A stretch of DNA of 63,719 bases, the filler included, from Hausera hauseri (Eukaryota), in assembly GCA_046269625.1 (NCBI GenBank). It is 12 parts of 12 records of this genome, joined end to end, with 100 filler letters (N's around TTAATTAATTAA, not from the genome) between each part and the next. Parts side by side here need not be neighbours in the genome. Positions count along the whole stretch, not along the records: positions 8,544 to 13,092 come from JBJURY010532009.1; 11 more parts are not named here. One strand, 5' to 3'. The notes beneath the pieces are model-generated. The model saw only the letters and a program-made list of their open reading frames with translations, was not told the origin of the DNA and did not search any database. A program made the position numbers and the translations under genes. Position 1 is the first letter of the stretch. The number at the start of each line of letters is the position of its first letter. Of this stretch, positions 5,901 to 51,622 are shown in pieces.

Positions 5901-6208
5901 TGATTCATTTATTGCAAAACCTCACCAAAAACAAAGGATCAAAAAAAGATCCTCAAAAAAATGTATAAAGTACGGTGGACCATGGGCCACCTCAGGTACT
6001 TCAGTCTGGCCCACTTTTGAGGCCAGATTTTATATATAAAATGTGAATCCTGTTAAATAGATGATCTATGACAGGGCTTACAACATGTCTGCCAGCGACT
6101 CTATTTAATATACAACAGATTTTAAATCTTAAAATAGATATATTCTTTAAAAAAATAAGCCTCTAATTCAAGTCAGTGAAAACCAGATTCTCTCCTTTTG
6201 TTCCTCAG

Positions 6209-6950
6209 ATCAGGCAGTAGAGATGGGAGGCATCGACAGCCAACGGGCGTCTGAGGTGGGAGATCATCTGACCCTCGAAACCACGACGGACGTGTCGACG
6301 CACAGGAGGAAGAAGAAGAAGAAAGCTGCGTCCACAGGTGAAACCAGACCACCGCTCCTCTGGATTTGACAAAGAATCTCGAGAGGCTCGCTGTGATCGT
6401 TAAAGTTTAAGTTTGGATTTCAGACGTAGAGGACGACCAAGCTGACCTCGTCAACGGAGACACAGGAGATCAGACCACCGACGGAGAAGAGGTGGTCAGA
6501 AAACCCAAGAAGAAAAAGTGAGAGAAGCCAAAAATTCTTCTTATCAGCCAGTTATTAAAATCATTTACATACTCCTCTCTCTTTCAGGAAGTCAAAGGTC
6601 GCTGAGTCGCAGTTTCCTGACGAGCTGGGAGTAGAAGATGATGACATCATCACCGACGCCTCCTCTCCGATCCCCCAGCATTCCTTGTTCTCGGCTCCTC
6701 AGGGTCAGAGCCAGCCGGTGGGGAAGGTGTTTGTGGAGAGGAGCAGTGAGTGTCGCAGGAAAGGCTCAGAGCAGTCAACACTTACATCCACCTAAATACG
6801 GCCGTGTTTCTGTTCAGAGCGATTCCAGGCTGCAGAGCGCTCTGACTGGAGGAAAACCAGCAACCAGATGGACAACGTGGCAGATCTCCAGCACATGCAG
6901 ACCCTGTGGACCACCAGAGACGTTTCTATCAGAGTGCACGAGGGCTTCAG
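6209..6950 (+). CDS. tmem237: Transmembrane protein 237 (ciliary transition zone), four internal exons, fish-like
   Basis: GT-AG exons 6209-6337, 6424-6517, 6588-6745 and 6818-6950 splice in frame to ...[10 protein letters not shown]...[22 protein letters not shown]...[15 protein letters not shown], matching recalled vertebrate TMEM237 motifs. Confidence 0.93.
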
Positions 6951-8543
6951 GTGAGGGGCAACAACAAGAACAAGACGTGGCTTTTAGCTGAAGAACCAGA
7001 GCACTAGCTAAAATCTAAAAGGCTTGTTAAAAGTAGCAGAACCTAGCTAGATGCTAAATGCAGCACAATAGTAGCTAAAAGCCAAAGTGTGCAAAAAGTA
7101 TCAAGTAACTCAAAGTAGCCGAAGGCCTGCTCACTCGCTAGCTTCCTAATAGTTGAACTAATATTTCAACGAGCAGTTTAGTGTTTGCATTATTTTTATG
7201 ACATTAACAGACATTAATTCCACTGCTGGTAAAAAGGATTAATTCATGTCAACACCTTATTATTACATGATTGTTTTTTCTTTCACACACTCCTGTGTCA
7301 TTGGTAAAGAAGCTACAATCGTGGAAATCATTCCCCAGCCAGGGTCACTTGGTGACATCATCCTCAGTCCAGGGACGTTATTTTGCATTTGGAGTCTCCT
7401 CTTCAATAAACCAGGTCTTCTGACTCACACTTTCAGTTTTCCCAGCATCCTTTGCAACAGTGATGGTTGCAAAATTAAAAAAATGTGAAACATAGACACA
7501 CTTGTTTGGTTTAGTCTGGGCTGTAGAAATAGTTGTTTTTAGTGTTAATGATGTTTGAATATAAGAACCAAGTTAGCAGAAACACTGTTTGACAGGCTGT
7601 AAATTTTCACCTCCTGTTTTTTCATCCTCTCCTGTCTGCAGCTCCTGGCTCAGAAAACAGACTAGTTTCTCTAATTTAACCTCTAAAAGAGACAACCTTT
7701 TATCCATTTATTCTCTATTTATTATTTTAATATTTTGAGTTGTGTTGAATTATGTTGTCATATTATGCATTTAGGTTTGGTTTGAAATCTGTTGAAGTTT
7801 AGTCCCCGACTGTAAATCTGACACACTGAGGTGTGAAGCAGGGGAATAGAAAAGGGAGCTAAACGCTGGAGTGTGGTGTGTTCAAAGATAATAACTCATT
7901 CATTTTGCACTGAATGTCATGGAGAACTGGATATTTATATAAATATTAGCTTGTTTAGCTTTAGATTCCGTTATTTCTATTTAGCTTTTTATTGTTAGCT
8001 GAGCTAAGCAGATCTTGATGCGGTTTGAGAAGCTAATATTTTGGTTAGCTGTGCCCACCACTGCAAAAGGCTGTGTAGAAGCTAAAGGTGGCAATGTATT
8101 AGCTAAAAGTAGCTTATAGCTTGTTTGGAGCTGTTAGTAACAGAACAGAAGCTAAAAGCTGAGATTTGCACGAGAAAACAAAAATAGAGCCTGTTCAGTA
8201 AAGCAGATTTCAAAGAGAATGTTTTTGTGAAATTGAAACAATTTTTTATGTTCTATGTGGAAAATTATTGTAAATAAAGTTCAAAATCATTATAAGTAAA
8301 TTTCGAAGGGAGAAGCTATTTGAAAATGGTAAGTTGTATTTCTTGGTATCCTTTATTTTATGATTCTAGATTTGAAACTTCAACTATTGTACCAACAAAC
8401 TTCATTCACAGGAAAAATGCAACGAAACAATGGAGAAACACTANNNNNNNNNNNNNNNNNNNNNNNNNNNNNNNNNNNNNNNNNNNNTTAATTAATTAAN
8501 NNNNNNNNNNNNNNNNNNNNNNNNNNNNNNNNNNNNNNNNNNN

Positions 8544-8746
8544 TCATTACGAATTGACATTTAATGCGACATTTTCAATTGTAAATCAATTAATTTCGTC
8601 TGCAATATGAAATATTTCGGCTTCAATTTAATTTCGTTGCAATATAAAATATTTCGGTTTCGGTTTCGTTTTCGATTTCGTTTCCAGTCTAATATACATA
8701 TTTACAATTAACAGTTTTGACCCTTTTTACCACATCTCTCCTCCCT
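8544..8746 (-). repeat. Polypurine tract (8735-8746) and start of 3' LTR (from 8734, cut by contig end)
   Basis: Minus strand reads AGGGAGGAGAGA immediately followed by TGTGGT. Confidence 0.75.
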
Positions 8747-11135
8747 GAACGGCACTCTGGGATGTGCCCACTGAGTCAGTAGAGATGTCGCGTAATCGGT
8801 TCATTCGTCCGCGTAAGTCCGCTTCGGAATACGAGTCATTCTGTGGAGATCTGGAATCAAGGTTATAGGACGTAGTAGGTTCTTGTGGCAATATCTCCAC
8901 TATTTCGTTGTTTTCCCCATTAGAGAAATATCTCAACCTTGTAGCCTCTGCCCTACATACTGGACAGGTTGTTTTTCCATTTTTCAGAGTCCACGTTTTT
9001 AAGCAGTACCGGCAAAATTTGTGACTGCAATTTTTGTTGTCCAATACTACGAATCCTTGGTAGAGATCCGCATCGCAGACGGGACATTCTTCTTTTTCGG
9101 CTCCATTAATGTCTACAAGGTTTTCATCCCCCTTTATCCTCTCGAATACTAGTCCTTTTTGTCCTTATATAGGTATCCGTATAATCTCTTTTGATTGGGG
9201 ACACCTTGACTAATGTCCATTCGACTATTTCTTGTTTATCCAAATCGGGTATTCCAGTCTTCTTGTATTGCCTTTTTAGTTGAATTCTAACTTGTGTATC
9301 TACGGGAATTGTCAATCTTTTAGTGCCATTCTTCGACTGGAATATTGGGGCTAGGTATCTACCAATAGTGATATCCTCTTTGGCATATCCATTTCCACTT
9401 ACTATCCATCTGGGAACGGTGGATACATAGAATATCGCTTCTTTGATCTTGTCCTTGCTATAATATTCGGTCATGATGAGGATTCGTTTATATTCTTTTA
9501 CTTGGCCAAATTCTGTAACTATAATTGGAGCATCTTCCTCCCAGTTTTTCCGAAGGACGTTAACTTTTGCCTGAAGGAGATTGGGATTCGTAATCTTTAA
9601 TTGGTCTTCGTTTAGTTTTTCCGTCTTTCGTCTGGTCGATAATTCTTGTCGTTAGTTTGTTTGTGCCTTTGGCGTGAGGCTGTTATCCGTTGACTTGGGT
9701 TTTTCCATTTGGTTTTAACTAGTTTTGCTCCTTTTTTACAAATATATTCCAGGAAGGAAGTTTTCGTCTTTTGTCCTCTTGGGTTTTCTGGGTTATTTGA
9801 CTCCACAGTTATTTCCTTTTGAGCTGGGCTGGTCGTTGGTTTCAGTTGGCTTTTTAGTGCTCCTACTGAATTATTATGAACAGTTACTCGAAATTGGTTA
9901 TTTTCTTGGGGTAGGACTTGTTTATAGATAGGGTATTCACTAAACCCTTTTCGAAATTTTTGTATCGAGATTTTGGGGTTGTTATCGGATACCGCGTTTT
10001 GCATGGGGTTCTTGGGTTTCCGCTTATGTTCCCATCGTAGTGAGTCATAGATGTCTTTTATAAATTTGGTTCGTTGACTTGCTGACATCAATTTAGGGAA
10101 TTTGAATCGTTCGCCATTCTTGGCTTCTAGCATCATTTTAAATTGCGATTCACGTGATGCTGACGACGGAATTAGGCAACCTCTTTTCCTCATCAAAGTA
10201 TTTTCTACTTGGCTTACAACTGCTGGGTTTCGTCTCAATTCCTGAATTCGGGCTATGTATTCTTGTCTAAATCGTAGCCGCTCTAACGCTTCGTGCACTC
10301 GGAATCCGGTGACAATATATCCATAGAAACAGTATCTTATATATTCTTGGATCTCCAAAAAATCTTTCCCTTTTTCAAGCTGTAGTTTCGTAATCCATGT
10401 AACGTCGGGAAAGGTATCCTTTACTATAGCTCGAGGCGCGATTATTTTGTTTATGAGTTCTTCCTCGTTCGTATTTCTGATAGAGACCTCGATCGGAATA
10501 TACCATCCATCATCCTTTTCTCCATAGTTTACGGCTAATATCCGGGTGTTCCTACCATTTGGAACTAGTCTGTAAGACTCTCCATTTTGCTCTATCTCGT
10601 CTTCTGTTGGTTTCTGTATGTATAATAGTGGTGGCAGTGGCTTCATTACTTCTGTTCGCCAGGTCATTTCAATCATGATTTTGGTCCGAAGTTCTGCGAT
10701 CCTGAACTCTAAAGCGTAATTTATGAGGCTATAACAACACAGTTCATAGGTGCTAAATTTTCATTGTTGTCCTTTTTGTGTACTTCAGGATTGTTCTACA
10801 ATCCTGTATTGAATTTCCCCATCAGCGATATGTATGTACAATTGCTGATGGGTGGGCTCGTACGGAATCATTTCTCTCAAGAGGTATGCTCGTGCATCCT
10901 TGGGATTACGCATTGCGTATAACCGAATCAGCCTATTTTCCTTTAAGTCCCATTTCAACCCGTTTGGTATTTTACTCTCTTGATTAAATTCTAGGTAGGC
11001 CTTGTTTTTCAGATTTTCTCCAATTTGTCGATATAAACTTTTGGATATTGGTTAAAGAATAGTTACGTGCTGCTGTAAGAAATCATCAATATCCTAATTG
11101 GAATTGATTACCGGATTTTTCGCCTTTTCGGCCAT
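8727..11135 (-). pseudogene. Accessory ORF (~800 aa ancestral): unknown N-domain, inactive DEDDh exonuclease fold (10029-10541), C3HC4 RING (8955-9086)
   Basis: ATG at 11135 is in frame with ORF 9612-10676. The exonuclease-like segment reads EVSIRNTNEEELINKIIAPRAIVKDTFPDVTWITKLQLEKGKDFLEIQE..GYIVTGF. The RING reads CPVC..CSHKFCRYC..W..CPVC. Several stops here are sense codons in the C7 copy. Confidence 0.8.
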
Positions 11136-11240
11136 ACTTACTTTGATAAAATAAAGATAAAGATTAATCCTAAGACAGATCATCGTTTTGAAGCAAAACA
11201 TTTTCTCTGTCTGATGATAGGATAACCTGATCTGTAATTG

Positions 11241-12577
11241 TCAGGTTATGATATCATAAAGTTCGTCTCGGCGCTCTTTTACCCGTTTATTTCCCTTTTG
11301 AATTTTATCGCGTTTATTACAGTTTTTGGAAACTAGAAAAATCATCACCGTTAATGTAACAAGAACGAAAATTGACAAACTGAATATAGCTATTATCGGT
11401 AAATTGTTTTCCTCTATGGAACAATTCGTGATGAACACTCTTTGTGTACTAAGACACTTATACTGCATTACTTTATTTTTATTGTCTAAAGTCCGCACTG
11501 TATAAGTTTTAGGGTTCTTACCCTTCGCAGTGATTCTTACTATATAGTCATGTTGCGGTCGTAATGATTGGCATTCGGTTTCCGGATTATTCTTTCTTAA
11601 GATTACGGTTTGATTGGTGTACAGGGTGCGACATTCAATTTTAACGTCGTAAATTAACGTTTCCTCCGCGTAGACTAGAATTTTGTTACTTTTTGTCAAG
11701 ATTTTAACTGGTATACTCCCCAGTTCTTTCTCGAGCAGTTCCTCCGAAGTGCCGATCACTGTTGTTAGGGTCGTACTCGGAGCAGTGGACGTTTTTGTCG
11801 TAGTGGTTGGAGGCAGAATCTTACACATTCCGATTTTTGGACAATATCACCTTAAATAGATGCTTCTTTCTCCGGGTACATCTTGTACAAATTGAGTTGT
11901 AACTGATACTCTTGTCCTAGTTGCAGTTTACAACACACAGTGGGTAGTCGTCGTCGGCCCAAATAACAATACTCTAGAATAGGAACTGACGATTTTTGTT
12001 GCATAAATCAAACAGACATTTGTCTATCTCCTGGCAATTCTACTTTGGTCTCAATTCGAATGCTTTGATTCTTTGGGTCTTTGGAGATCCGAATAATGTT
12101 ATAATCTAAGAGCCTTTTAAGTGGGTCAGTATTCTGGATTATCTCGTCCGTCTTGGCTTGATTTGTGTCATTTTGTTAAGGCATTCTTATTAAAAATTCA
12201 GTAATTATATATGCTTGGGCTCCCGGTTGATTATAATAGAACATATGAAACCTGTATCGGTAGTTTTGTCAGAAATCCAAATCGCAACAAGTCCTATGAA
12301 TCCCGTACGCAAAATCGCATGTTCTTGTTGTGGATCTAGCTACAAATATTATTTGAAATTTCACATGGTTCTGAACAGGTTCACTTACTTTGAACCACGC
12401 ACATGGTTTGCTCCAATTCATGTCGTACACTCTAAGTGACTGTAAGTTTTGTATATCCTTCCGACTTGCCGCATATTGTAACTTTTCGGTTTTAGTTATC
12501 GACTTCACCTTCGGTACATACGAGGCGATTAACGATGAGGCCAGGACTATTTGCACATACGATATTGGTCTAGTCAC
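11241..12577 (-). pseudogene. Type I membrane protein in the env position (signal peptide, Cys-rich ectodomain, Thr-rich stalk, FN3-like segment, TM, basic tail)
   Basis: Starts 7 nt after the integrase stop. Contains hydrophobic leader VQIVLASSLIAS, stalk PPTTTTKTSTAPSTT, SLRPQHDYIVRITAKG and TM PIIAIFSLSIFVLVTLTVMIFLV. The middle is disrupted. Confidence 0.72.
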
Positions 12578-12583
12578 TATCGA

Positions 12584-13092
12584 TTACGTTTTCTTTTCTT
12601 TATTTGTTTTGCTTGAACGCAAATTATAGCGTTTGTTTGGTCTTAATTTCGTTTTAACTACTCTCTGAATTGATATGACTTCTTCCTTGCCACTTTTATT
12701 TATATAAACTGTAATTGGTGTAACTTTGGTAACTTTGTAAGGTCCTCTACCTGTTCTGGTATGTTTGAGAGATGTGCCTTTCTTTGCAACTGAATAGTGT
12801 ACGTAAACCAAGCTTCCGGGTTCTAGATCGTGTGGTTTAACGTTCTTATCGTAGTGTTTCTTGAATTGTTCCTGGTATTCTTTGGATAATTCCCTGGCTA
12901 TTTCCCAACATTTGCGTAATCTCATTTGTAATATCTCGACAAAATTTTTCTCTAAATCTTCCGTTCTTGTGGTGTAGGGAATCAATCCTAAATCTGTAGG
13001 TAGTACAGCTTCTCTGCCATATATCATGAAAAACGGAGTGAATCCTGTTGCAGGATGTGGTGTAGTATTAATGGCAAACTGTGTACCTTCTA
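12584..13092 (-). CDS. Ty3/gypsy integrase C-terminus (GPY/F domain)
   Basis: FAINTTPHPATGFTPFFMIYGRE..LP, KKHYDK, GRGPYKV motifs. Confidence 0.92.
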
Positions 13093-20075: not shown

Positions 20076-23000
20076 CATGCATTTTGGACTTAAGAGCCAC
20101 AAACCGCGAGATGATTGTCCCATTCGCCTCGTCTTTAAATTTCCCAAGGACCTTTTGGTTGGTAATTGAATAGTTAAGATGCTCCTTTGGATAGTCAGAC
20201 GTATCCATATGCACAGCCAATTTAGCAAAGTCCTCATAAATGTCCTCTATATGGATCTAATAGATGAAACTATCAGTATTTATGTACATCAGCTGTATGG
20301 ACGTGGATGTGGGAACTATGATGTCATAGTGGAATTTGTACATCAAGGACTTTGACAGGTCCAGTATTGGCATACACATATTTGAGTTTGTTGAATTGCA
20401 AGGATGTTTTCAGCATATGAATGCTGACCATGTTCTTCGCATATATGATGCTTTTGTGGAAGTTTGGTTTGGCAATGAGATTCTTTGCCCGCTTCCACTC
20501 ACAGATCAGTTCGATGTTGATCCTGTTGCCGATATTCTCCATTGTCTTGCCATAAAACGCTGTTGTTGTAAATCTTGAACTGATCCTTCTCAAAATTGTT
20601 CTTGGCATTTGTCCGCAGCTTGGTATTAAGATCTATATAGGGTTGCAGCCACATGGACTGGCTGAACTGCAGGGTCCGATGGATCTTCGTAATGCGGAGT
20701 CCATTTCTGACCGCCTGCTGGAGACTTATGTAGTGGACTTGTAGTAGGATTTGCAAAGTGCCGAATATTTCATTCCCGGTAAAATACCGCCGGAAAAATT
20801 CAATCCCAGTTTTTTCCGTTTATTTATGGATTTTCGAGCATTTTCATAAACAACGTGCCTACAAGACTTTTGCACATATCGTTTTCTGTTAAACACACTC
20901 TTTCTATATATTTTTAAGCAAATAAACTAACATAATGTAGTAATAAGACCAAAAAATGTAAAAATATTATACTTAGTATTTAAAATATATTTTTCTCCTG
21001 TTTAAAGAATAACAGTTCTTCAGAGGTTCTTCCAATTAATTCGTCCTAAAGGTCGATAGCATGAACTTTTATTGCATGCTTGTGTAATCCGGATGTTGAG
21101 CCACCGACAGATTTCAGTACCTTCTTGCAAGATAAGCATTTAGTTTCTTCTTTACCTGTCCTAGAAAAATGTTGCCAGACGTTAAATTTCTATGAGACAT
21201 TATAAAGGATGATTGTTTTTACTGTAATTCCAAATGTTGAATTTTTAACGTGTTGTATTGAATAATATAATGGAATATTAAAACAGCAATTTAAACCGGT
21301 ATTTCAAACTTCGGTTTCGGTACTGTCCTTACTTTTCGCATCCCGGTATTTCCCAGTATTCCAGTAACGGTTTGCAAACTCTATAGAACAGCTTTCTGTG
21401 CTTTCCATGGGGCGGATGCTTGCTGTCAAGGAGAAAAGGAAGCTGTTGATGCCTTATGTGAATAGAAGCCGGATATTCCATATCCTACTCCAGTATGTAG
21501 CCTGTATCACCAGTGGGATCCACATCCAATATAGGGATGTTTTCAGGGTGCTCGATCCACTTGAAGTCACCATATGGAAATGGGGCCCTCATTGCCCTTT
21601 CATACAGGTTGTTGGCATCTAGGTATGATATATATGACGATTCCTTTGTTGAGCCGTATTCGGCCATATACTTGTTGTTAGCCTCGCTATACCGGTGGAT
21701 TGCCTGGCACATTCCGCCTCTAATGCCTCTCTTGATCACGAGTATCATGTCGTAATCCTTTATGAACTGCAGCCTGACACCTGTATATCTAAGAATAGCT
21801 GCCCAGCTCATCTCTATAGCCGTAAAGAAATGAGCTGGATCCAATGCATGGTTCTTCGTCGTAACATCCCTGAAATTCTCAAAGACATCCTTCAGAAGCA
21901 GCACATCCATCTTGAGGTATATGTCGCTGTATTCCCCTAACGTTTGGCACTAGAATTCATACCAGACGTTCTGAACATGCTGATAGTCCATATCACTGAT
22001 ATCGCAGTCTGAGAGGATATTGTAAAAGTCCTCCTTAGCCGTTAATGAGGTTTCATCCAGTGTTTCCCTTGATGTTTTATAGTCATAGGGAAACACGTCT
22101 TTCCTCTTGACTAGGTCAAATGTAGTAGGGAAGAAACTCTTCGTATTCTTGAATTCTTCTGCAGGGAGGTTCTTCACTAAACTGTCAAGTGAAGAGGACA
22201 TGAAACGGAAGTTGTCTACAAAGCGAAGCCTGATTTTCCCAACATGCTTTGTAAACATTATGTACTTCTCCTCACTGTTGGAGATCACATCAATGTTTCC
22301 TTCAATGCTGCCCAGTTCCTGAACAATGAAATGGGAATCATGGTCATTGAGATTATGGAACACTACAGGCACATATGTAAATGTTTTGCAATGTAGATTG
22401 CAGTTATTGCATGCCACGCCTCGAGATGTGCCTGTAAAATGGCAGTGATCCCTGACTTTATAATTCTCCTTAGTGAATGATTTGGAGCAGAAGTAACATG
22501 CTTTTGCCTTGCACTATTCTTCTTCTTGCTACTTCGGCATGCTCATATAGTCCGTTTGCTGTTGAAGCATGTTTTCAAGCTTATGAGCCATATCTTCAAG
22601 TCGTTTCATAAAATGTGCTGCTGCGCCTGGACCCCTGAATAGAAACATTTCACTGTACAGTCCTTTGGCATACATGCAATACGGTGAGAGTTCATGATAT
22701 TGGTATGCCGTTGTGCTGCTGTGTTGAAGACTGGGAGTTCATGTCTGTACTGGTCTGAGAATAGCTTCAAAGTCGCAATAAACGACAACTGGGACCTTTA
22801 GCTTCTCCTCGAAATCCTTGAATTCAATGTAGTCCTCCTTGGGAAATTCTGGCCTGATACAGCAATTGTTGGTGCAGTACATCTTGTGCTCTTTCAGCTT
22901 CTCCACAGCTAACTTGCCACTAAAATGGAACAAGCATAGTTGCATAACTCGATTCTTTCCTTATATTTCGTCATTTTGGATCTGACTAGACGTTCAAAAT

Positions 23001-23700
23001 TCTTTATCCAGATGAAATGCCTCTTTTCACCATCATATAGTAGGAGCAGATCCCTATAATCTTCCAATTCAGTATCATATATCTGCAGGGGATAAAATTT
23101 GTCCGCCTCATCCAATCCAATGATGTTGATGAATATGTTGTTGATTCGGCTGAACTTCTTAATTTCATCTAAGGATGGAGGGAATGTGATACATTGGAAG
23201 TCATAGTTGTGCTTCAGATCATTATATAGCCAAACTCGATCTGCTGCATGTTTTTGATTTGGTACGAGTGTTGATAGAATGGCATACGTGAAACACTTGT
23301 TGTCGTTATTATGGACATTGACACATGCTTTCCATTCCGGAATCTGAATATAAGAACTACCCCGCATTGGAGAGTACTTGTGGACATACAGAAGCAATCT
23401 CTTCATGGTTGCCAGAGTCCATCCGCTCTTCTTACTTTGGCTCTCATCAGCTTCACGGATCAGCATTGCATGCTCTTCATGCAGCCATTCTACTATATTG
23501 GTGGCTTCAAAAATGGGTCTATTTATGGTCTTGAAGGCCATTTTGGACTCTTCGCCATCAACATTGACGTATATGGTTTCAAGTTTCATATTAGCCTTAA
23601 TGGCCTTGAGCTCAGCTAAGTTGTCCTGTAGAATTCCCTCTGTTTCTTCCTCTGTGTACTCCAGGAACTCCTTAATGGTTGTTTGACCAGTTGCATCAAT
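20076..23700 (-). pseudogene. polB: Polinton/adintovirus-type protein-primed DNA polymerase B, degenerate
   Basis: SGWTL..YSPMRGSSYI..NNDNKCF, VYCDFEA, endonuclease-VII-like RDHCHFTG..CNNCN, FHNL..DSH, RFVDNFRFM, YLDANNLY, K..NNSV/YGKT, YINTDS and LGKFKDE. Confidence 0.93.
20745..21383 (-). mobile_element. Non-autonomous hAT-like element with BED zinc finger, inserted in polB
   Basis: Imperfect TIRs TAGGATTTGCAAA and TTTGCAAACTCTA. Internal VWQHFSRTGKEETKCLSCKKVLKSVGGSTSGLHKHAIKVH (~21060-21185). No 8-bp TSD; only TAG flanks both sides. Confidence 0.8.
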
Positions 23701-25329
23701 GACATATTTGCGGACTTTTCCTTTAATGCTGCAGCATTAACTGACCGCTGTCTTCGACTTTTTGGTGGAGCCCCTACGCCTGATGCGCCTGATGTGCCTG
23801 ATGGTCCTGGTGCGAGTTTTAGTCTTGCATCTAAATGTACTGCTGCATCTGGCTGTGATACTGCTGCTGTAGGATGTGCTGCTGCAACTGGCTTATGTTC
23901 ACTAAAGATGATCTTTGACTTTGATGCGTAGTGAGTCAAATGATGTTTTTGATCTTCATAAAACTGTATGTATTCTCCACCACATACAGCCTCACATCCT
24001 GGGAAAATATAATAGAGGATCCTATTGAAATTTTGTCCATAATAGTTCCTCATAGTATTGTGGCAATTCTGAGGGTTGTGTATTGTACATGTGCAATACA
24101 CATATGGACTGCATCATTGATTTTCGTTTGGTATGAAAGTAGTTATTGGCATATTGGTACTGAATATTTACTTTTTCGACTTGGTGAAGGGAATTAGGTG
24201 TTGTTTATGGACATTATAAAAGTCTTCATAATTGGTTTAGCACAGTACCTCACATGTAGGGCATATATAATACTCAGCCCCGTTGTATAGTTGGCTAAAG
24301 TATTTTTTCATAATATTGCGGCCATTTTCAGGCTCATGGATTTGAGCCAAGCATCTCTGTAAAGTTTGCACATCTAAAAATCAACCAATTATTTGAGAAG
24401 CACAATTAAAAACTCACCATTCCTTGAAGTAATTTTCGAAATCATGAAAAAATATATCCATATCACCATGTACCGACTCGCTTATTAATTGGTTTTAATG
24501 CACTTTTGTTTTAATGCATCAATTAAATACAGGGAGGAGCCAAATTTGATTAGTTTTTCATATATGGGAATTCGAATGACGTCATTAGATTCTTCGAATG
24601 ATGCATTCTTGACCAAATATTCAAGTTCGAATAGCCAAATATTCAACTTGAAAGCTCGAAGTCAAATATCTAACATAATATTCCTATTCGGCATNNNNNN
24701 NNNNNNNNNNNNNNNNNNNNNNNNNNNNNNNNNNNNNNTTAATTAATTAANNNNNNNNNNNNNNNNNNNNNNNNNNNNNNNNNNNNNNNNNNNNGACGTA
24801 ATGACATTATTTTATTCAGAAATATTAAAATAATCTCAATGATCCAAAAATAGTTTCAAAAAATTTATTTGAAATAATGTGGTATGTAATGATAAATTTT
24901 CTTTTATATAGTAATATATAATACAAACACACAAAGTGACTTTTATAAAATAGATATGTTCTGCAATATAACATATATTGTATAATTAAATTGCTGAAAA
25001 AATCCTTTGTGTGCAGTTATTCCGATTTTATGTGGACTCGCTAAATTGAGGGAGTACGTTTATTGATATGAAACGTAGTGCAGTGATACTTGATACATAC
25101 TTATGTTCAACGTCTTGTCCCAAAACTGGACAGTATACATATTTGACGTTACTGTGTAGAAAACTCGAATTTTCAAATTAAATCAAATTACTGGACATTT
25201 GATGCACATCATTTTTGTAAATCCAAAATTAATTAAATCAATTTTCTATGTACTACATTTGTTAGTGCGTTTCATTTTATTTTTCAGCAACATTTCAATC
25301 AATATTGTTGATTTGTATGAAGCGATATG

Positions 25330-28394: not shown

Positions 28395-29229
28395 TTACTG
28401 CGGCGGCACGACCCTGCACCGCAGTACAATGCTGTCATCCTTGTAGACAGTTGGTTCATCGAGTAATTCATCCCATTCAATAAAATCCACACTGCCGTAA
28501 CCGACATTCGTCTCGCTCGTCGGACGAGAGAAAACAAATTTATTCTCATTCGGTGTCGACGAAATGTCATACGTCACCGTACAATGGGACATGTCATCAT
28601 GTCCCTGCACCATCAAGCTAATTTCAATCGGCAATCGACACGGCCAGTCCAGTAGATCATCGAACGATCCACGCAACAACGCAAATCCGATACTGACGTG
28701 CGTTCCGCGCCAATCGTTCAGTCCATTCGGCATGACCTGCAATGCCAGTTTGTATCCTCTGTCGTGCGAGAAAAATGCATCGCTGGACAAGATTTCGTTG
28801 TCGTTACCATCCTGTTGGGCTGCTGCGCGTTTTTTCTCGCTGATGTTTTCCACACGCCACCAAAATCCGCTGTCCGTCGCAACGGCGAGACTCACCGGGT
28901 CGAATTGCGGTGACTCGTCAAGGTGCTCGGCAATTGTAGATGTAGTGATCGTGCTTATTGGCATTATAGCACCTTCTTTTTGCAGTAGACCACCAGAATA
29001 CAGTCGCAACGGCATGTCGATGCTACGACGGCCACGCATGAGACTGCCACGACGCATTAACAAACTGATCTGGTTCCTAATTGTCACTAATGTCTCAACA
29101 ATCAGCCGCCCATGACTCATCCCCTCTGATGCAATGTGAGCATTCGTGTCGGCCGGTGTAGGTCCCTCAAACTGACACCCAATTTCTGCGTATGGGCATT
29201 TCACTGCCTTGTTGTCATCTGATATTTGC
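28395..29229 (-). CDS. TRAF-family protein, last exon (TRAF zinc-finger remnant plus MATH domain)
   Basis: CPYAEIGCQF; FWWRVENIS..SDAFFSHDRGYKLALQVMPNG..GTHVSIGFALLRGSFDDLLDWP..GYGSVDFI..YKDDSIVLRC. Acceptor cag at 29230-29232. Confidence 0.92.
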
Positions 29230-30204
29230 CTGAGTCAGCAAATAATTCATTTCAATATTTGACATATTTTAAGGTAATAAATAAAATTTCTAATATCATA
29301 AAAATTCACTTTCTAGAATAATTTTACCTAATCGGAAAATAAATTTTCAACGTCTAACAAAAAGAAATATTCGGGAATCTTGAATAATCGCTAAATTAAA
29401 ATAATTTTATTCAATAAGCTTAAACAAATAATAATTTAAAGTTTTCAGAGCACTTGTTTTATATCTGAAATGACGTGTAGATAGAAAAGTACATCTTCAT
29501 TAACTAAGTTACCATTGTTTTGCATGCTTGTATTTTAAAAATGTATCAATGCGTTATCATTAATTTGCTGAACTTCAAAATATTACATATTCCACGTAAA
29601 GATGGTTTTTTAAAATGAAATTTTTTCATGTTTCGGATCATGATAATTTGGTATCGACCACAGAATCTTGTAGCCCAGAATCTTTTCTACAAAATACAAA
29701 AAACTTTTGGTCGAAAATTGCATATTTCAGTAGATATAATTTGCATAATTTTCCACCTTCATTGTTCAGCTGAGTGAATGTTCGACGATATAATTACCAA
29801 AATTTTGAAATTCGAAAGGAATATTTCTGCATAAAACGTATTTCGGAAACCTTACACAGTGCATTTGAATGGGAATTTGTGCTATACATCAAATTTCATA
29901 TATCAAATCCATGCTATATTTTATATTTCATACATATTGTGTATTTCGTCTTGTTTTCGCATATCTGACATCATACCGGATTCTCCATATGTAGTTTCCT
30001 ACCTGTCCCAGCTTAAAGATTTTATCATTTTTGTATCCTTTCCCTTCAAATTCACAGTTAATTAATACACACAATCAAGTACCGTGGAATTATATATAGA
30101 TANNNNNNNNNNNNNNNNNNNNNNNNNNNNNNNNNNNNNNNNNNNNTTAATTAATTAANNNNNNNNNNNNNNNNNNNNNNNNNNNNNNNNNNNNNNNNNN
30201 NNGT

Positions 30205-32399: not shown

Positions 32400-32499
32400 A
32401 CTTACTCTGCCAAAATAAAAATAAAGGTCAGTCCTAAGACGGATATTCGTTTTGAAACAAAACATTTTATCTGCCTGATAAGAGGATAACCTGATCAGT

Positions 32500-33400
32500 A
32501 ATTGTCAAGTTATGCTATCATAAAGTTCGTCTCGGCGCCCTTTTACCCGCTTATCTCCCTTTCGATTTCCATCGCGTTTATTACAATTTTTGGAACTAGA
32601 AAAATCATCGCCGTTAATGTGACAAGAACGAAACTGGACAAACTAAATGTAGCTATTATCGGTTTCCAACGGAATTTACTTTTCGACGCTTGTCCGAAAG
32701 CTCCAACACTTCCTGGGTAGGTTGTGGGAGACGGATATAATTGTTTCCTTAGGAGTTGTGGTACTGAGTCATATTTTATCAGTGATATTTCGGATCCTGT
32801 GTCTATCAGCGCATACACCGCCCACTCTTCTAATTGAATTTTTGCGAAAGGCCTACCTTCGGTTACCGTACCGTAATAACTTGGTGCTAGTCGGGCGTGT
32901 CTTATCGTGGACACTTTGTAGCCGTTGATGGTAACTTCAGTGGTTCCAACTGGCTGATCGATTAATTGTCTTAACTCTCCAATTGGGTATAGTTCGTTAT
33001 TCGCACCATTCGCGTTTTCTATTTCCTGTTTTCTAACTGGCGGCTGGATTTCTTGGTTTCTGAGATGGTGTGTTTCGCGGTTTCAGGTAAATGTTGACTG
33101 CCTTTCGTTCGGTCTAGGTTTTCTAGGTGAATAAATTATACCGTAATCGTCGACTGCTGAGCGACGATGTGGGGCAGCCGTTCTTTCCGTTCCGTGTTTT
33201 CTTCCTTCGTAAGGATCCTCTAGACTAAACGGTTTTCGATAGACGTCTGTTTGGCACGAACTCAGATTGTTTCTTGCAATCTTCATATACAGGTACCATC
33301 GGCGGCAGTATCGGCAACGGTAATTTCGTAACAGAGTAGTTTTTGTGCCTGTTCGACTGGGAAATAGCGTATACTCCCTTAGGCTCGTCATCGTCAGAAT
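32500..33400 (-). pseudogene. gag C-terminus (frameshifted zinc knuckle) and aspartic protease, joined by deletion to the membrane-protein TM tail
   Basis: CRYCRRW../..VYEDCK; ALIDTGSEISLI. Junction at ~32663 leads into PIIATFSLSSFVLVTLTAMIFLV, homologous to 11241-11400. Confidence 0.82.
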
Positions 33401-33409
33401 TATTTCTCC

Positions 33410-33975
33410 TTATTTTAGTAACGCTATGGAACATCACCTTCTGTAGGCGCATATCGGTTTCGTAAAAATTTACCATTATGATGTTTGACTCTAATCCTTT
33501 CCCAGTATCGTATTTCGCACCATAACAATGTCCGGTGTGCATGTCTAGTCTTCCTGATGCCAATTTATACACTCTGATTATTTTCCCTTGCTGCATTTCT
33601 AATTCCATGTCTACATATCTTATTCTTCCCATCTCTCTAGCTTGCTTACAATGCTGACATTCTAAATTCATGGGAATTGGTGGGGTTGTTGGCTTGATTA
33701 TTGATGAGTGTCCGTATACCAGTCCACAATGGAAAATACTGCAAAATCGTCGCAACATACATTCTACTCCGTCTAAGGTAACTAGTTCTCGTTGTTGATG
33801 AAACACATAATTTTTCTCTTTTGTTTCTAATTTATCTGGTCTCGCGTCTTCACACACTTCTTAGTTCATTAATGAGTATTTCTGGCCCAGTCTAAATTTG
33901 TCACAGTCATAAACTGTGACTGCGCCTATCTGCCTTATTAGCATCATCATGGTTAAGAAGTTATTTAACCACTTG
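33410..33975 (-). pseudogene. Chuvirus-type (class III, gB-related) glycoprotein N-terminal part
   Basis: Signal-like FLTMMMLIRQIGA, then VYDC..YSL..C..Q..VEC..FHCG..HSS..C..G..ASG..GHCYG, the Cys pattern of chuviral glycoproteins. One in-frame stop; truncated at ~33410. Confidence 0.78.
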
Positions 33976-36661
33976 GACTCGTTTCCTCTATTATTTCCGA
34001 TTATGTTTCGTAGCAAATCTTCAACTCTATTATTGCCAAGGAAAGACGTATTTTGCCGTTCTTCTCTTTCAAACAATTTTGGCCAATTCACTTCTCGCGG
34101 TAGTTTCCTGTCAGCCTTTCTCACCAAGCTAATGGCCTTATTGAATTCGTTTTCTCGGACTGGATTGATTTTAACGGCCAAATATAGAAAAACTTTCCTT
34201 ACCTCCTCTACGGTGTTCTCTGCCATAATTTTCTCGATTACCATTTCATCGCTTAGGGTACTTCTGGATAATTTACACCGAAAACTTTTCATAATTTTGG
34301 CTGCGTTAAATATAGCCTTTTCTTTTTTGTCCAGTATGTTGCCACCGAGACTAGGGTGGTTCACTATTCGTATCAACTTTTCCATGAGTTTCTTCAGTTC
34401 TTCGTCACCGGTGCTGAAGGTTGGTATGGGCATTGGCCTCAGTTCTCTGATTAAGTCTCCACTATAATCAATTTCTTCTCGCATTTTCCGTGGTCTACCG
34501 ACGAAACGCTTCTGTTTTATTACAGTCGGTGCGACCTCACTAGTTGGCGCTAGATTCTTATCGTATTGTGTCTTGTCTTCGTCGCTTTGCAGATATTCAA
34601 AATACATTGCTGCGTTTTGAACTCCTATGGATCGTCCTACCCACTGTTCTGCTCTGGCTTTTTCTTTTGACTCATCGGGAGAAATTGTTACCACTATCCT
34701 GTTTACTTCCTCCGGAATAATTCCGACTTCTATTAATAATTCTAATTCATCTAGTATTCTTCCTCTAAAATAAAGTCTATAGTTAACTCATGGGTGTATC
34801 CATTGCTCTTTATCTATGCTAATACATCTCTCACAATGGATCGAGTAGTAAATTCATGTTCCTTTTCGTCCATCCAGTCAGATGCTATCTTTACTATGAT
34901 CGTCTCCTCTGCCTTTTCCTTCAAGATTTTAGCATATTCTTTAATTAAAATCTTAGGTGCCGCACTATAAATTGTACCTTCGTTGGCTAATTTGGTTAGA
35001 GTGGGGACTAACTGTCTTAATCGAGTTTCGGTGAGGTTTATATTAATTAACTTAGTTAAATCTTTCTCTGTTTGTGCTGAGTCCAAAAGCATTTCCACAT
35101 TGAATTTTTGGTCCAAAGGATATACCTCCGTTCTGCTCAATCGTATGGGAGTTTTCGGTTTTTCAGAAATTATTGCATCTATATATGCCTCCAATTCTGC
35201 TTTGTTCTCATTATCCGGCAGTTGATAGTCCCTTGGTGGTGCATCAGTTGGCCCGTCCACACCTGCAGTCCATATTGTTTTTCTGAGTTCTTGTAGCTTC
35301 TGTTGCATTTGGGCCATTTTCGTTGTCCGGAAACAGCGCCCATTACCAGAAGTTTGGTGTAGCAGGGTTAACAACGAACATAATTCTTTAGCCGGAATCA
35401 GTCATTGTTCTTGATAGTTTGTTAGTTCGGAAGTGACATCTCTTTGCCATCTTTGCACGAATTGTGACTTGTCACCATTTTCTGCTTTTGTATGGACATA
35501 TTTGTTTTTATAGACTTCAAGTTCTTTAGTTAGTTCGTCTAACCTTATCGACCTCTGTTTAGTCTTAATGCAAGTTTCTTCGACTTGCTGTATCTGCTGA
35601 AACAATTGTCTTAATTTCTCGTCGCTAATTACCGCCATTTCCACCATCAGTAGCGCTAATTCATACATATAGTTAATACTTTTTGAATCTGGATCTATCG
35701 CATCTAATAACTTTTTTACAAATTTGATTTCTTCACAGCTAAGGTGGTGGTCGTTCTTTATTCTACTCTGTTCGGTGTGATGCCTTTGATCCATTCCGTC
35801 TGTCCATTCTTGTGGATGGTGTAAGAACTTTATCTTTTCTTAAACGATTGACCGATATTCGGGACAAAAGTACAAGGTTCTAAGGTCTCGGATTGAAATT
35901 TCCGCGATGGGCTTGGCTGTTAAGTACCGTATTACTTTCAGGCGGGCATCTCTCAATCTTGGATAAAAGTCACAAGTTGCGTTCCGTTTTTGTATAAAAG
36001 TTTGTTTCTTCGATCATTTTATACATATCATCCAATATTGTTATTTCTTGTTTTTTCCGATAAAGTCCAATTGACGCAATGCCTCGAATTGGATTTGGAT
36101 GTCAATTTTTGCCTTCATCATATCTAGATTTTGGGCGTATTCTTCTAATTGCTTCTTTACTGTGGGTTCGCTCTCCGGAAATTCGTTTTTCCTACTGGCT
36201 ACTAATTTACTCAACCTTATTGTTACTTTGTACCATTCGTTCAACTGGTTAGCAATTTGTGGATTTGCCAATATTGCTTTGTCCAATATTTTGTGAACGT
36301 CTTCTAGCTCATCATCTGGACCTTTAATAAAACGGATGATCCGACGGGCGTAGTCGAACTTGTCTTTATATTCGTCAAATTTGAGAATACAAGCCATAAT
36401 TATTTTCTGTGTTTTGCCATTATTTTTATGCATAATTCTATTCCTCAGACCATATATCTGCGACCTTTTTTCGGCCTCAATCTTATTACGATTTTCCAGA
36501 CTTGTATATTGTTTTGATGCCGTAGAAGCAACTTTTATCACCTCCATTAAGGGTGGAATGTCTATTGAGTCTATGCCCAACATCTCTAGATCAATTGCAT
36601 CTCGTTCCTTGACCGGTTTTCCCTTGAGTCGTTCGACTAGTGAAAATAGAATTTTATTCAT
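33976..36661 (-). pseudogene. Long uncharacterised helical polyprotein region preceding the glycoprotein
   Basis: ORFs starting at 36661, 35794 and 35374 share one frame. One frameshift leads to ORF 34694, which runs into the glycoprotein. The region is charged and coiled-coil-like, with AT-hook-like KRFVGRPRK. Confidence 0.65.
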
Positions 36662-36689
36662 GACACGCTCTAATTTACTTGCTACTCTA

Positions 36690-37007
36690 AAGGATGTACA
36701 AATATTACAAATTTGTCATATTGATGAACCATTTATACAGGATGTACTAATATTACAAAAATTGTGACATTGATGAACCATTTATGCAGGATGCACCAAT
36801 ATTACAAATATTGTCACGTTCATGAACCACTCATACAGGACCTGCGAATATTACAAAAATTGCCATATTGATAAATCACTTATGCAGGATGTACCAATAT
36901 TATTTACGTTTTCTTATTGATGAACCATTAATACGGAATGTACCAATATTTCAAACATTGTCGTATTGTTGAACCGTTTATGTAGGATGTATCAATATTA
37001 CAAAATT
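36690..37007 (+). repeat. Minisatellite, ~48-bp unit, ~6.5 copies
   Basis: Unit approximately GGATGTACCAATATTACAAAAATTGTCATATTGATGAACCATTTATGCA; runs into the contig end. Confidence 0.9.
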
Positions 37008-43564: not shown

Positions 43565-45775
43565 TTAAGGTTGAAGAAAGTGGAGGAGATAAGCTGGAAA
43601 ATGCGGAAGAAATTTGATGCTTTGGTGGAGGTCGGTGAGGGAGTGGATTAAAGAATTGGACCGAAATGGGAGGTAGTGAGGTTGTCGGAGTGTCAGGCAA
43701 GGTATGTAAAGTAGTGGAAAACAACGAAGGCTGAGATGTAATAGCTGGTTGAATATATGTTTGTGAGGACTGATTATCAAATTAACTTTTGGTGTTTGCG
43801 GGGTCGACAATGGAGCAGTTTCAGCTGACGTGGTATCGTCAATAAAGAAAGCAGGTTTTAAGTTAGTAATATGGACTGATTGTTTTTTGTTGTCCTTAAG
43901 AATTATGGCGTGATAGGAATAAAGTGAAAGAAGTTTATAAGGGCCGGTGTACCGTGGCTGAAAACCGACCGGAGTTTGGTTTTTTAACCAAACGAATTTA
44001 GCTATGTAAAGGTCGTTAGGAATGTATGGTCGATTGCCATGTAGAACTCTACAAAAAGCGTCTTTGCTAATGGCAACAAAATGTTCCTGGGCCGCCCGAA
44101 TTGTTTCATCAATAGGTGAGTTGTCCTGCTCAGTTAACTTGAAAAGGGCACATAGTGGTGTGCCAAATAGAGCCTCCGACGGGGAGCAACCGGTTGATGT
44201 GGATGGAGTGTTTCGCCATCCGAGTAAGACAAAATGTAAAAGGTTTACCCATTGGGGGTTGTGTTCAGCTAGAATTCTGAGAGAGGTTTTCATTGTACCA
44301 TGAAAACGCTCTAAAAGGCCGTTCAACTGGGGGTGGTAGGGTTTTGTGTGGATGTGCGATATGTTCAGTCGATTTACTAGTGATTTAAAGAGATTCGACT
44401 CCAATTGGGGGCCTTGGTCGGTGATGATGTGTTTGGGTTCGCCGAATCGGCTGAGCAATACACGTATAAAGGAGTCAGCTATGGACTCAGTGTTTGTGGA
44501 TCGAAGTGGAACTGCTTCTGGCCATTTAGACAAACGGTCCATTATTGTGAGGATAAATTGGTGGCCGTTGTCTGGTGGAAGAGGGCCGACGATATCGAGA
44601 TGGACAGTATCAAAGCATGACGTACAGGAAAAATGATAAAGTTGCGGATTTAGGTTTTTAATGATTTTGAATTTTTGGCATGCCGCACACTCCTTAACCC
44701 ATGCCTGCACGTCTGTTTTCATTGATGGCCATGTAATTTGGCGTTTCAAGAGGTGGTATGTGGCCTTAGATCCTAGATGGTGTAAGGCATGAATGTTTGT
44801 AAAGGCTATTCTTTGGAGAGAAGGAACTAATACGATTTTAGGCTATCCAGGGTCGGTGGTATCGAAGGCCACGCCATGATTGATTTTAAAAGATTTATAA
44901 GAAGTGAGAGTTTCATCATCCGGTTGATTCCGTCGAAGAGTCTCATTATCTAGAATTGGTTTAAAAGTTATCGAATTAACTGAAAGTGACAAAAAATCAG
45001 CCACGACGTTGTCATACCATGTATATGTTTTATGGTAAAATGAAAGTTGACAAATAGGATATATGTCTTTCCTGACGTAAAGAGGGAGATTTCATGGTAA
45101 AAATGTGTAGCAGCGGCTTATGGTCCGACTGAATTGTGAAGGTGCGTGATATTAATAGATGTTTAAAATGCTTAACTGCGAGGAGCATTTCTAAAATTTC
45201 TCTGTCGAAGACAGAGTACTTTTGTTCTGTTGTAGTAAATTTTCTAGAAAAGAATCCTAAGGATTGATGCGCGTTGTTTTTTAATTGGTGGAGTACTGCG
45301 CCTGCAGCGATAGTTGATGCGTCCGTTATAAGAAAAAGTTCTGATGTAGAATCTGGATAGGTTAATACTTCTACTCTGTTGAGATTTGTTTTTAGGTGTT
45401 CGAAAGCATTAACGAGGTCAGGTGTCCAAATAATAGGTTTTTTATTTTGACCGGAACTTTAGGTAGCGAATGGAGCGGTTAATATCGAAAAATGCGGCAC
45501 GTATTTGTGAATAAAATGCAAGGTACCGAGGAATGAAGGCATTTCTGAAGTTGTGCGTGGTAATTGAATGTTTTTCAGTTGAGTGATGCAGTTTTGCTGT
45601 GGAGCGTGTCCGTTTGGAGTAATAATGTGTTCGAGGAAATAATTTTTTTGTTTGAAGAAGGAGCACTTTGCGAAGTTTATTTGGAGGTTGTTTTAGTGGA
45701 GGCGTTTGAATACAATGCGTAGGTGCGCAGTATGGTGTTTAGAGGATGAGGAGGCAATTAAAATATCATCGATGT
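43565..45775 (-). mobile_element. Ty3/gypsy pol (RT end, RNase H, integrase), degenerate
   Basis: IDDILI, LITDAS..GAVL, HLDIVGPLP, ITDQG.Q, YHPQLNGLLERFH and YTGPY. Confidence 0.93.
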
Positions 45776-46189
45776 NNNNNNNNNNNNNNNNNNNNNNNNN
45801 NNNNNNNNNNNNNNNNNNNTTAATTAATTAANNNNNNNNNNNNNNNNNNNNNNNNNNNNNNNNNNNNNNNNNNNNAAAGAATCTTCGTATAGTATATTTG
45901 ATAACGATAATACTAACTATGAGCAAGTGAAGATGAAGACAAAGTACGGACAAATACCTGGCATTAAACAACTAGTGTTAAAGACACGAAAGCCTAAATA
46001 TAGGCATAAGCTTATGACAGATTTACCCCATATAGATGCCATAGACGAATATCAGCTCCCCGATACGTGGTACATACAGGATTATATCCAATGCACCATG
46101 TACAACAGATGCGACAAAATTTTGAGGAAGACGTAAGACCTTATAAGCGTGAATTGACGTGCAAAACTGATGATAAAAAAGGATAACGA

Positions 46190-49180: not shown

Positions 49181-49619
49181 TAAATGTGTGTGTTACATCT
49201 TCACCTTGTGTTGCCACGAGGAGGAGGGGAAAAAACACATCCAACAATTCACATTCAGATAGTGTGTGTAATGACAGCTGTTTCAAACACTTGCTGGATT
49301 ACTCATCATTACAATTTGCATAACTTTGAAGTATTCATAGCATTAGTGAGGCAATTACAATAATTAACATGGGAATCAATGTCAATGGGCCACAGCCACA
49401 AGGCAAGTGCAATTACAGCTATGCTAATTAGGGTTTAATTAAGCTTTTAAAGAACAATCGGCTTATTTAACTGAACATATTCAAGAGGATAGAGATACCA
49501 CCCACACTCGCACACATTAGCACATCCGATAACGGAACATGGATGTTAGCATGTGCTTAGAAACAGGTGTGCAGTGTGGGGAAAGTGCGCACACACTGCT
49601 GCACTCGTACCATCTTCCT

Positions 49620-49877
49620 CTGCCTTCTTCTCTTGTTGTTGACCACCACCATGTCCGCTTGGTTAGTCATCACCTGCTTGTTGATCTGGATCTAGAAGTC
49701 CCACAGCACCTTAGCCCTTCCTTTCTGCCACTTTTACTGTGGACCTCCAGTCCTGTTCCTGTACACTACTCCAGCCACTTGGTTATGGTGTTCCATGTGT
49801 GCTTTGCCTGGGGCGTCTCAGCACAGCCTGCATCTTGGATCCTATCTGGTATCGTAGACCTCAGCCTCTATTGTTCC
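49620..49877 (-). mobile_element. R4/Rex6-like non-LTR retrotransposon fragment (restriction-like endonuclease region)
   Basis: DPRCRLC, HNQVAGVVYRN and AKVLWDF.IQINKQVMTNQADMVVVNK. Confidence 0.75.
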
Positions 49878-49977: not shown

Positions 49978-50580
49978 ATCACTGGTTCCTCCTCCGTCTG
50001 TTGGTCAGTGGACACCAGTTGCCAGTTTGACATGTAGATCTTAAAATTAAAAAATAGAGGTCAAAATAAATGTAAAATAATACTTCATAATTGTATTGTT
50101 ACAGTGCTATCTTAAACTACACTTGCCTGATTGCCAACAGTCTCCTTCAGTTCTACTTCATAGTCTGAATAAAATGATACAATGATTATATTACATCTAT
50201 CTGTGATAAACATTGTTTAATCAAGATTAAATACACGTGTTCTGAAATAGCATGTTTAAAAAATACTGTGTTAGACATGTGTAGAGATTAATATTTACAT
50301 CTAATCAATCATTTAGCTAAAAATGATCATTACAAACTGAGTCCAGCAAACCAACATGTACAGAGTTTATTAGCGAACAGTTAAGCTGACCGGGTGGGAG
50401 GGGGCGGGGCTCCCTACTCTGAGTGGCCGGCTGAGAGTGCTCTATGGGCGGATTGTTTTTCTGATTGAGTCGGCGATACATCCAGTAGCCGGCAGAACCT
50501 AAAAGCAGCAAACCAGCGGCGCATGCGAGCTTCTGGCAGGTGCCCGAAGTTATAGTGGGCAGAAGTTTGCTGAGAGTCAT
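49978..50580 (-). CDS. Mitoguardin-like gene, 5' exons of the next tandem copy
   Basis: MTLSKLLPTITSG.. is a paralog of 55206-55805; cut by the contig end. Confidence 0.6.
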
Positions 50581-51278: not shown

Positions 51279-51622
51279 GGGTGGCACAGTGGCTTAGTGG
51301 GTTACACTGTCGCATCACAGTGAAAAGGTTTTGTTTGATCCTTGGGTGGGGCGATCTGGGTCCTTTCTGTGTGGTGTTTACATATACTTTGCGTGTCTGT
51401 GTGGGTTTTCTCCGGGTACTCCGGTTTCCTCCCACAGTCCAAAGACTTGCTACCAGGTTAATCGGAGACACAGAATTGCCCTGTAGGTACCTGCGATGGA
51501 CTGGCGCACCATCCAGGGGGTTACCATGAGCTTTGCGCCTGTTGAAAAGCTGGGATAGGCTCCAGCATGCCAACCTGACCCTAATTAGGACAGAGGTTAA
51601 AGACAATGGATGGATGGATGGA
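51279..51622 (+). mobile_element. tRNA-derived fish SINE (V-SINE/HE1-like)
   Basis: GGTGGCACAGTGGCTTAG A-box head, core GTGGGTTTTCTCCGGGTACTCCGGTTTCCTCCCACAGTCCAAAGAC and (ATGG)n tail. Confidence 0.88.

Follow-up and report, generated by a model that had tools for sequence, protein, structure and literature searches.

Complex viruses are well known for accessory genes that turn the ubiquitin system on host defence, but to our knowledge few such genes have been characterised in long terminal repeat (LTR) retrotransposons. Here we describe a locus in a 63,719-nt stretch of DNA from the animal Hausera hauseri (assembly GCA_046269625.1; 12 short contigs joined by N spacers, hereafter the window), in which a Ty3/gypsy-type element, present in many copies and here dead, carries an accessory gene that fuses an exonuclease-like domain to a RING finger. 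The copy fills contig 3 (JBJURY010532009.1; 8544–13092), and all features below, repeats and the 6181–7000 segment aside, lie on the minus strand unless stated. Juno and Vesta, LTR elements of bdelloid rotifers, likewise carry an extra 3′ open reading frame (ORF) with a DnaQ-like exonuclease, and the group also includes small transmembrane ORF3s (PMC5408684). Their catalytic residues are intact and of the DEDDy/RNase D-like kind, and neither a RING nor readthrough is mentioned in the available text of that source; in contig 3, by contrast, the acids are lost, the best matches are DnaQ, PolC, ISG20L2 and SDN1, a RING is fused on, and the gene is preceded by an in-frame membrane ORF. The giant gypsy-like planarian element Burro/GYPSM1 carries cargo related to ubiquitin (a RING-associated AIR1 motif, MATH, SUMO-like), with an env in the polyprotein frame (PMC6431247). 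In Burro, however, this cargo and an F-type env follow gag and precede the protease in an ORF of 4,900 aa, with no exonuclease listed in the text available, whereas the cargo of contig 3 is 3′ of the integrase and similarity to a fusogen was not found in our searches.

Single in-frame stops are likewise found in SIRE1, where the pol/env stop is suppressed, and in murine leukaemia virus (MuLV), with its gag/pol readthrough (PMC2194720), and viral type I and II readthrough sites likewise combine a CAR-YYA or CGG context with 3′ structure at a spacer of 8–12 nt (PMC3159437). SIRE1 and MuLV join pol to env or gag to pol, whereas the stop in contig 3 follows a membrane protein, would append a pseudo-enzyme and a RING, and has a predicted structure overlapping a candidate splice acceptor. 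A host analogue that may work alike is PML isoform 1, which holds a RING and a dead exonuclease fold, PXL, in one protein; PXL binds RNA, and PML-I promotes proteasomal loss of LINE-1 ORF1p (PMC13659232, PMC10123124). PML differs in being a restriction factor of jawed vertebrates with an N-terminal RING in an RBCC arrangement, on the opposite side of the conflict and with the opposite domain order, and no PML chain was among the best 60 PDB rows for the exonuclease-like domain. Thus exonuclease ORF3s, ubiquitin-related cargo and pol/env readthrough are each known on LTR elements; their combination was not found described in the open literature, searched by titles and the beginnings of abstracts (Repbase, Dfam, GyDB and subscription papers lay outside this scope), nor did we find there a description, for retroelements, of readthrough that leads out of a membrane ORF into accessory sequence at a junction overlapping a splice acceptor.

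Copies of the element and its 3′ end

The minus strand of contig 3 reads, in order, an integrase-like tail, a membrane ORF, the accessory gene, a purine tract and TG. Contig 3 was found in one public sequencing run, of which 5103 contigs align, most less than 95% alike, so that the element family must be large and diverged. A complete pol is present in no single copy: contig 3 has the integrase-like tail directly before its 3′ genes, contig 7 a protease in that place, and the reverse transcriptase (RT) of the contig 3 element is absent from the window. The tail (12587–13092) is the C-terminal part of a gypsy-type integrase truncated by the contig end, as judged from motifs seen by eye and a weak alignment: we take a post-core motif and GPY to identify it, a pairwise match to the integrase of contig 9 includes GPY at E 0.12, and a Pfam scan of the tail matched no integrase family.

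The stop that closes this tail (12584–12586) is private to the contig 3 copy, since 63 contigs, amounting to 99.5% of the summed depth, differ from it within this codon (variant frequencies here and below are depth-weighted contigs from the single run), and the frame runs on into the membrane ORF. In the family, pol and the membrane ORF are therefore probably one polyprotein. With the accessory gene in turn lying in frame behind a leaky-type stop, the sequence-only reading's picture of three separate ORFs is probably wrong.

At the other end, a tract of 12 purines (8735–8746) overlaps the last codons of the accessory gene and is followed by TG, with the accessory stop 5 nt beyond (the whole at 8727–8746); the C-terminus of P0002, a natural relative described below, is the same six-residue peptide that overlaps the tract in contig 3. 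No second LTR was found within contig 3, and summed contig depth falls from thousands inside the element to 21 in the last 150-nt bin (8544–8695), so the sequence past TG is little shared among copies; this segment, which follows the presumed start of the LTR, is close to single-copy in the public run. We infer the LTR only from the purine tract and TG. Of the stop that had been described as lying just inside the LTR after a polypurine tract, the tract and stop are borne out, and the LTR is presumptive. More generally, gene order, fusion and polypurine tract held up as observations, whereas an open frame in contig 3 and a full second copy did not. That the accessory gene is element cargo is borne out by the thousands of diverged contigs and by the overlap of its 3′ end with the purine tract.

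The second copy (contig 7, 30203–36715) is internally deleted and comprises a long 5′ ORF, a protease, a membrane segment, the stop-codon junction and an accessory gene cut inside the RING. It is 75% identical to contig 3 over 2479 columns and broken at other places: it has sense codons at all four accessory-frame stops of contig 3 and keeps the pre-RING domain and RING in one frame, as had been noted, but it is not a full copy. Its protease abuts the membrane segment near 32663 and is 35% identical (E 8e-7) to the protease of contig 10, an element with protease, RT and RNase H recognised by Pfam and BLAST and with an integrase-like end. The contig 7 copy lacks RT, RNase H, integrase and ectodomain, retains membrane segment, junction and accessory gene, and is possibly non-autonomous. 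Its 5′ region (33225–36715) is a decayed ORF of about 1,150 codons, an unusually large gene for the gag position, in which no Pfam family scored above cut-off, and it is preceded by a 49-nt tandem repeat (36660–37002).

The pseudo-exonuclease–RING gene

The accessory gene of contig 3 spans 803 codon-lengths from the ATG at 11135 to the stop at 8727, which agrees with the roughly 800 codons first reported, but it is not open: before the linker is reached there are four internal stops, and the frame changes at least twice. A HMMER scan of 1.84 billion representatives returned two relatives, P0002 and P0003, and no cellular one; word-indexed protein searches added none, and related loci were not found in metagenome, viral and prokaryote collections. 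P0002 is a natural 870-aa open frame that carries the pre-exonuclease domain, exonuclease-like domain, linker, pre-RING domain and RING (residues 747–790) without interruption. As read from this protein, the fusion was ancestrally open, as the sequence-only reading had proposed.

The gene begins with a pre-exonuclease domain (10581–11093) that is conserved in P0002, P0003 and contig 7 and has no family match; a single weak cupin match (E 1.4) was not taken as evidence. It is followed by the exonuclease-like domain (10035–10580), by a short conserved stretch and a variable basic linker with a frame change (9526–10034), and by a conserved pre-RING domain (9161–9525) that is 50% identical to P0002, has a frame change at its end in contig 3, and gave no match in a PDB search. 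Between contigs 3 and 7, the ratio of nonsynonymous to synonymous divergence (dN/dS) was 0.07 in the pre-exonuclease block (10581–10931), 0.17 in the exonuclease block and 0.11 after it, and 0.05 in both the pre-RING block and the N-terminal part of the RING, where dS is near saturation in each; synonymous sites of the ATG-proximal block were saturated. Bootstrap intervals of pN/pS did not exceed 0.56 in any of the five accessory blocks. The accessory gene is thus under purifying selection, and this comparison of the two window copies, which had been proposed as a check, gave values (0.05–0.17) well below 1.

The exonuclease-like domain was recognised by profile matches. An alignment of it against PDB returned DEDD exonucleases in four of four matches, and with the distant relative of contig 12 added, the profile matched DnaQ, PolC and ISG20L2 at E 1e-4 to 2e-4. 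P0002 matched phrog_192 (E 1.1e-4); single sequences matched Pfam RNase_T weakly (E 0.014–0.018); and in the Atlas an arenavirus nucleoprotein was the top match (0.92), with an RNase_T cluster at 0.89. The HMMER alignment shows A-x-N in place of the Exo I D-x-E and Met or Ala in place of the Exo II D, and by eye the Exo III acid is absent as well. Because the A and N are invariant in five of five sequences, down to about 20% identity, the loss of the acids must be old and kept, and with the D, E, D and D acids missing the domain is to be regarded as a pseudo-enzyme and not as an active DEDD member. By these profiles and alignments, it is a DEDD-type fold without catalytic acids. An R3H domain suspected by eye after the exonuclease was set aside, as Pfam gave no match and the stretch suits the Exo III helix better.

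The RING (8955–9086) is of the C3HC4 type with eight of eight ligands, and scored above the Pfam cut-offs of zf-RING_2, zf-C3HC4_2 and zf-C3HC4 (E 8e-9 to 3e-6). The ligand pattern is complete in contig 3 and P0002 and degenerate in contig 7, which by eye lacks two cysteine ligands. The Trp, Pro and Arg at what we take to be the E2-binding and linchpin positions are present in contig 3 and P0002, and the RING is probably an active E3 ligase. The fusion of a pseudo-exonuclease to a RING, central to the sequence-only reading, is therefore upheld by the PDB profile (E 1e-4), the lost acids and an intact C3HC4 pattern. In the interpretation as a whole, element cargo, ancestral fusion, selection, the DEDD-type fold without acids and the RING all stood; the three separate ORFs probably do not.

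Membrane ORF, stop codon and candidate splice acceptor

The membrane ORF opens with a hydrophobic segment (12515–12568; Kyte-Doolittle 1.6–1.7 over 15 residues) that may serve as an internal signal sequence, and continues into an ectodomain with a Thr-rich stretch (11403–12514), broken by four stops and one frame change. Pieces of the ectodomain gave no match in Pfam and PDB searches, class I fusion proteins included, with a sensitivity lowered by the broken copy. Their Atlas matches were beta-sandwich families at 0.79–0.86, below a reliable score; the ectodomain possibly consists of Ig/FN3-like beta-sandwich repeats, with FN3 identity as a lead only. A single transmembrane segment (11327–11402; up to 2.78 over 19 residues), retained in contig 7, and a short basic cytoplasmic tail (11244–11326) complete the ORF. 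From this layout we infer a type I membrane protein with a cytoplasmic tail, cut from the pol polyprotein.

The membrane ORF ends at UGA-CAA-UUA (11235–11243), an in-frame stop in the CARYYA readthrough context that is conserved in contig 7 at 32507. The sequence-only reading had passed over the readthrough and splice signals of this junction. In both copies the accessory gene continues in the frame of this stop, the 35 codons that lead to the next conserved ATG are open, and the stop is the sole break that contigs 3 and 7 have in common. Among 411 contigs on 11170–11310, not all of which span the stop, the stop was unchanged at a 1% depth threshold, and the hexamer showed one change only (2.6%), which is still CARYYA. 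CARYYA is the readthrough hexamer of the tobacco mosaic virus type and works with UGA in cells (PMC4132726). In the window it follows 8 of 7009 stop triplets, two of the eight being these sites, and the chance of such a context is about 0.003 per stop. Synonymous divergence after the stop was 2/21 sites compared with 0.61 downstream (P 1e-6).

The junction is also predicted to form a two-state RNA element (11161–11257), with a hairpin A (core 11222–11249) over the stop (z -4.4, -2.8) and a stem B (11161–11228) starting 12 nt past it (z -3.6, -2.4). The two folds are mutually exclusive in both copies and lie 1–3 kcal apart, and keeping the stop region single-stranded in the prediction lets B form. 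Readthrough in alphaviruses and plant viruses uses stems at spacers of 8–12 nt, with 12 nt in Sindbis virus (PMC3159437). About 100 nt downstream of the UGA, a branch-point motif, a pyrimidine tract and an AG form a candidate 3′ splice site (11141–11168) just before ATG 11135, and stem B has the branch motif as its 3′ arm. By motif ranking, this acceptor is first of 252 AGs in contig 3 and, in contig 7, first among the AGs with a branch motif (411 AGs in all). As the ORF3s of LTR elements are typically expressed by splicing (PMC5408684), splicing is both a rival and a likely partner of readthrough. A perfect donor-like GTAAGT lies 0–1 nt past the acceptor in the close copies (11136–11141, 32400–32405) and is absent from the distant relative, with V-S at the matching place in P0002 and P0003; it is a possible recursive splice site or micro-exon.

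In the protein sequences of P0002 and P0003, the open frame extends upstream of the first conserved block by 56 and 68 codons, respectively, and spans the acceptor-like stretch, which fits translation from upstream. The distant relative in contig 12 (61960–63330; 23% identity, E 2.5e-8) has a membrane segment, UGA-CGG-UUA at 63164, an acceptor at 62975 and a pseudo-exonuclease. UGA-CGG is a type II viral readthrough context (PMC3159437); here it stands at the same distance behind the membrane segment as in the close copies, under a hairpin and before 62 open codons, and the acceptor ties for first of 219 AGs. Any listed readthrough context follows 46 of 2469 UGA triplets in the window. A module of membrane segment, leaky stop, acceptor and pseudo-exonuclease thus looks older than the RING, which, as none was seen in the 750 nt downstream in this relative, was probably an add-on and not the core function. 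We judge readthrough of UGA-CAA-UUA rather likely, and use of the candidate acceptor equally so.

Expression model, rival explanations and wider meaning

Our overall reading, to which we give about even credence, is of a dead Ty3/gypsy copy whose pseudo-exonuclease–RING gene would be expressed in two ways, as a soluble protein by splicing and as a membrane-anchored one by readthrough, and whose product would probably attach to nucleic acid or to its partners and mark a host factor with ubiquitin. The spliced message would yield the soluble protein, and readthrough, at a lower rate, would make the same protein a cytoplasmic extension of the membrane protein. In free RNA the predicted hairpin A would cover the stop and leave the branch point exposed; a ribosome at the stop would free the predicted stem B and bury it. 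The dead nuclease fold may bind nucleic acid or nuclease partners, as PXL of PML-1 does with RNA (PMC13659232), and the RING would recruit an E2. Counter-defence by ubiquitination is plausible, and it is a tentative suggestion, a little short of even, that the target is a host restriction or silencing factor. A wider proposal, of an animal Ty3/gypsy lineage with a receptor-like membrane E3 (beta-sandwich ectodomain and single pass, encoded in frame with pol, and a nucleic-acid-binding pseudo-exonuclease–RING reached by programmed readthrough) and an RNA switch between the anchored and the spliced soluble form, is doubtful as a whole.

Several observations weigh against this model. The public run used for the variants may be the window's own sample. 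AlphaFold2 was uninformative, with a predicted local distance difference test score (pLDDT) of 31 for P0002 alone and 38 for a four-row exonuclease alignment. Synonymous divergence is low before the stop too (3/19 sites), and as the conserved block reaches into the tail upstream, it could also be due to some other role of the RNA or to copies having recently exchanged sequence. Past the stop, the 35 open codons show no protein-level constraint (pN 0.17, pS 0.10), and the stems, compared between two copies, have three one-sided changes, no two-sided ones, and 2 of 25 pairs broken. Tca2 shows that a stop with structure need not itself direct readthrough (PMC2194720). In P0002 and in the distant relative, a hydrophobic segment precedes the acceptor; if it is a real second membrane pass, the RING would lie on the wrong side. 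Contig 12 contributes more such points: a RING was not found in 750 nt downstream in three frames; there is an extra in-frame UGA 13 codons upstream; the frame of the exonuclease ORF is a different one; the predicted folds score weakly (z -1.8, -1.0); and relatedness of its ectodomain was not detected, with 40–207 of 300 shuffles scoring as high.

Some of these points lead to an account in which only splicing operates, the UGA ends translation as any stop does, and the structure conserved at the junction governs splicing or packaging. The acceptor is best-ranked or tied in all three contigs (best in contigs 3 and 7 as ranked above, tied in contig 12), the two window copies, P0002 and P0003 all have an ATG ahead of their first conserved block, stem B overlaps the branch point, and amino-acid constraint after the stop was not seen. 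Splicing alone, however, would leave unexplained why one lineage has an exact CARYYA and the other UGA-CGG, a hexamer whose sole variant stays within CARYYA, and the frames of P0002 and P0003 that are open upstream of the first Met; we consider it rather unlikely. Unlikely too, and by a shade more so, is a different job for the protein, in which the pseudo-exonuclease shields or chaperones the ends of element RNA or cDNA, or decoys host exonuclease complexes, and the RING is a later add-on for membrane traffic, particle release or self-turnover and not for the destruction of defence proteins. That contig 12 keeps the pseudo-exonuclease with no RING detected speaks for such a role, as do the placement of the RING at the membrane in a readthrough form and the rotifer LTR elements whose exonuclease ORF3s have no RING (PMC5408684), but constraint on the RING and pre-RING domain (dN/dS 0.05) matches that on the remainder, and both are intact in P0002.

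In a further account the conserved block is an internal DNA promoter, or a signal for reinitiation, after termination, at an ATG 13 codons past the stop; contigs 3 and 7 share this in-frame ATG (11201 in contig 3), and a minor promoter exists at the Tca2 junction (PMC2194720). We find this very unlikely, as ATG 11201 is inside the predicted apical stem, contig 12 has no ATG there, and the readthrough contexts and acceptor would all have to be coincidental. The idea that the gene is a passenger, a captured piece of a host gene or flanking DNA without element function, draws on the missing LTR pair in contig 3 and is largely refuted: 5103 diverged contigs cover the gene, dN/dS is far below 1, the gene end overlaps the purine tract in contig 3 and apparently in P0002, and 1.84 billion representatives hold no cellular relative.

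The window has other features beside this element. Two further gypsy-type pol regions lie at 45876–49877 (plus strand) and 43565–45458, and downstream of the contig 12 pseudo-exonuclease there is a decayed gag-like region (59746–61300) with a CCHC knuckle (Pfam E 0.017), from a neighbouring or tandem element. Matches to a type B DNA polymerase and endonuclease VII mark a decayed region at 21485–24113, which we take to be Maverick/Polinton-like. An intronless 279-codon MATH/TRAF ORF and a dynamin-family exon were seen at 28395–29234 and 1603–2145, and a roughly 5-kb tandem duplication of about 90% identity at 49978–59645. GC-richer exons and introns that look vertebrate, and fish-like, stand amid the AT-rich contigs at 6181–7000 and may reflect a mixed sample or captured host DNA. 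Matches to cyclophilin, avidin and CAT were taken as chance.

For the biology of such elements, the junction offers a compact and testable case of readthrough after a membrane protein, and P0002 is a natural intact protein that can be assayed directly. The pairing of a RING with a pseudo-exonuclease in the element mirrors that of the host restriction factor PML-1. If the proposal of anchored and soluble forms is true, a retrotransposon would have a two-compartment, retrovirus-style counter-defence protein.

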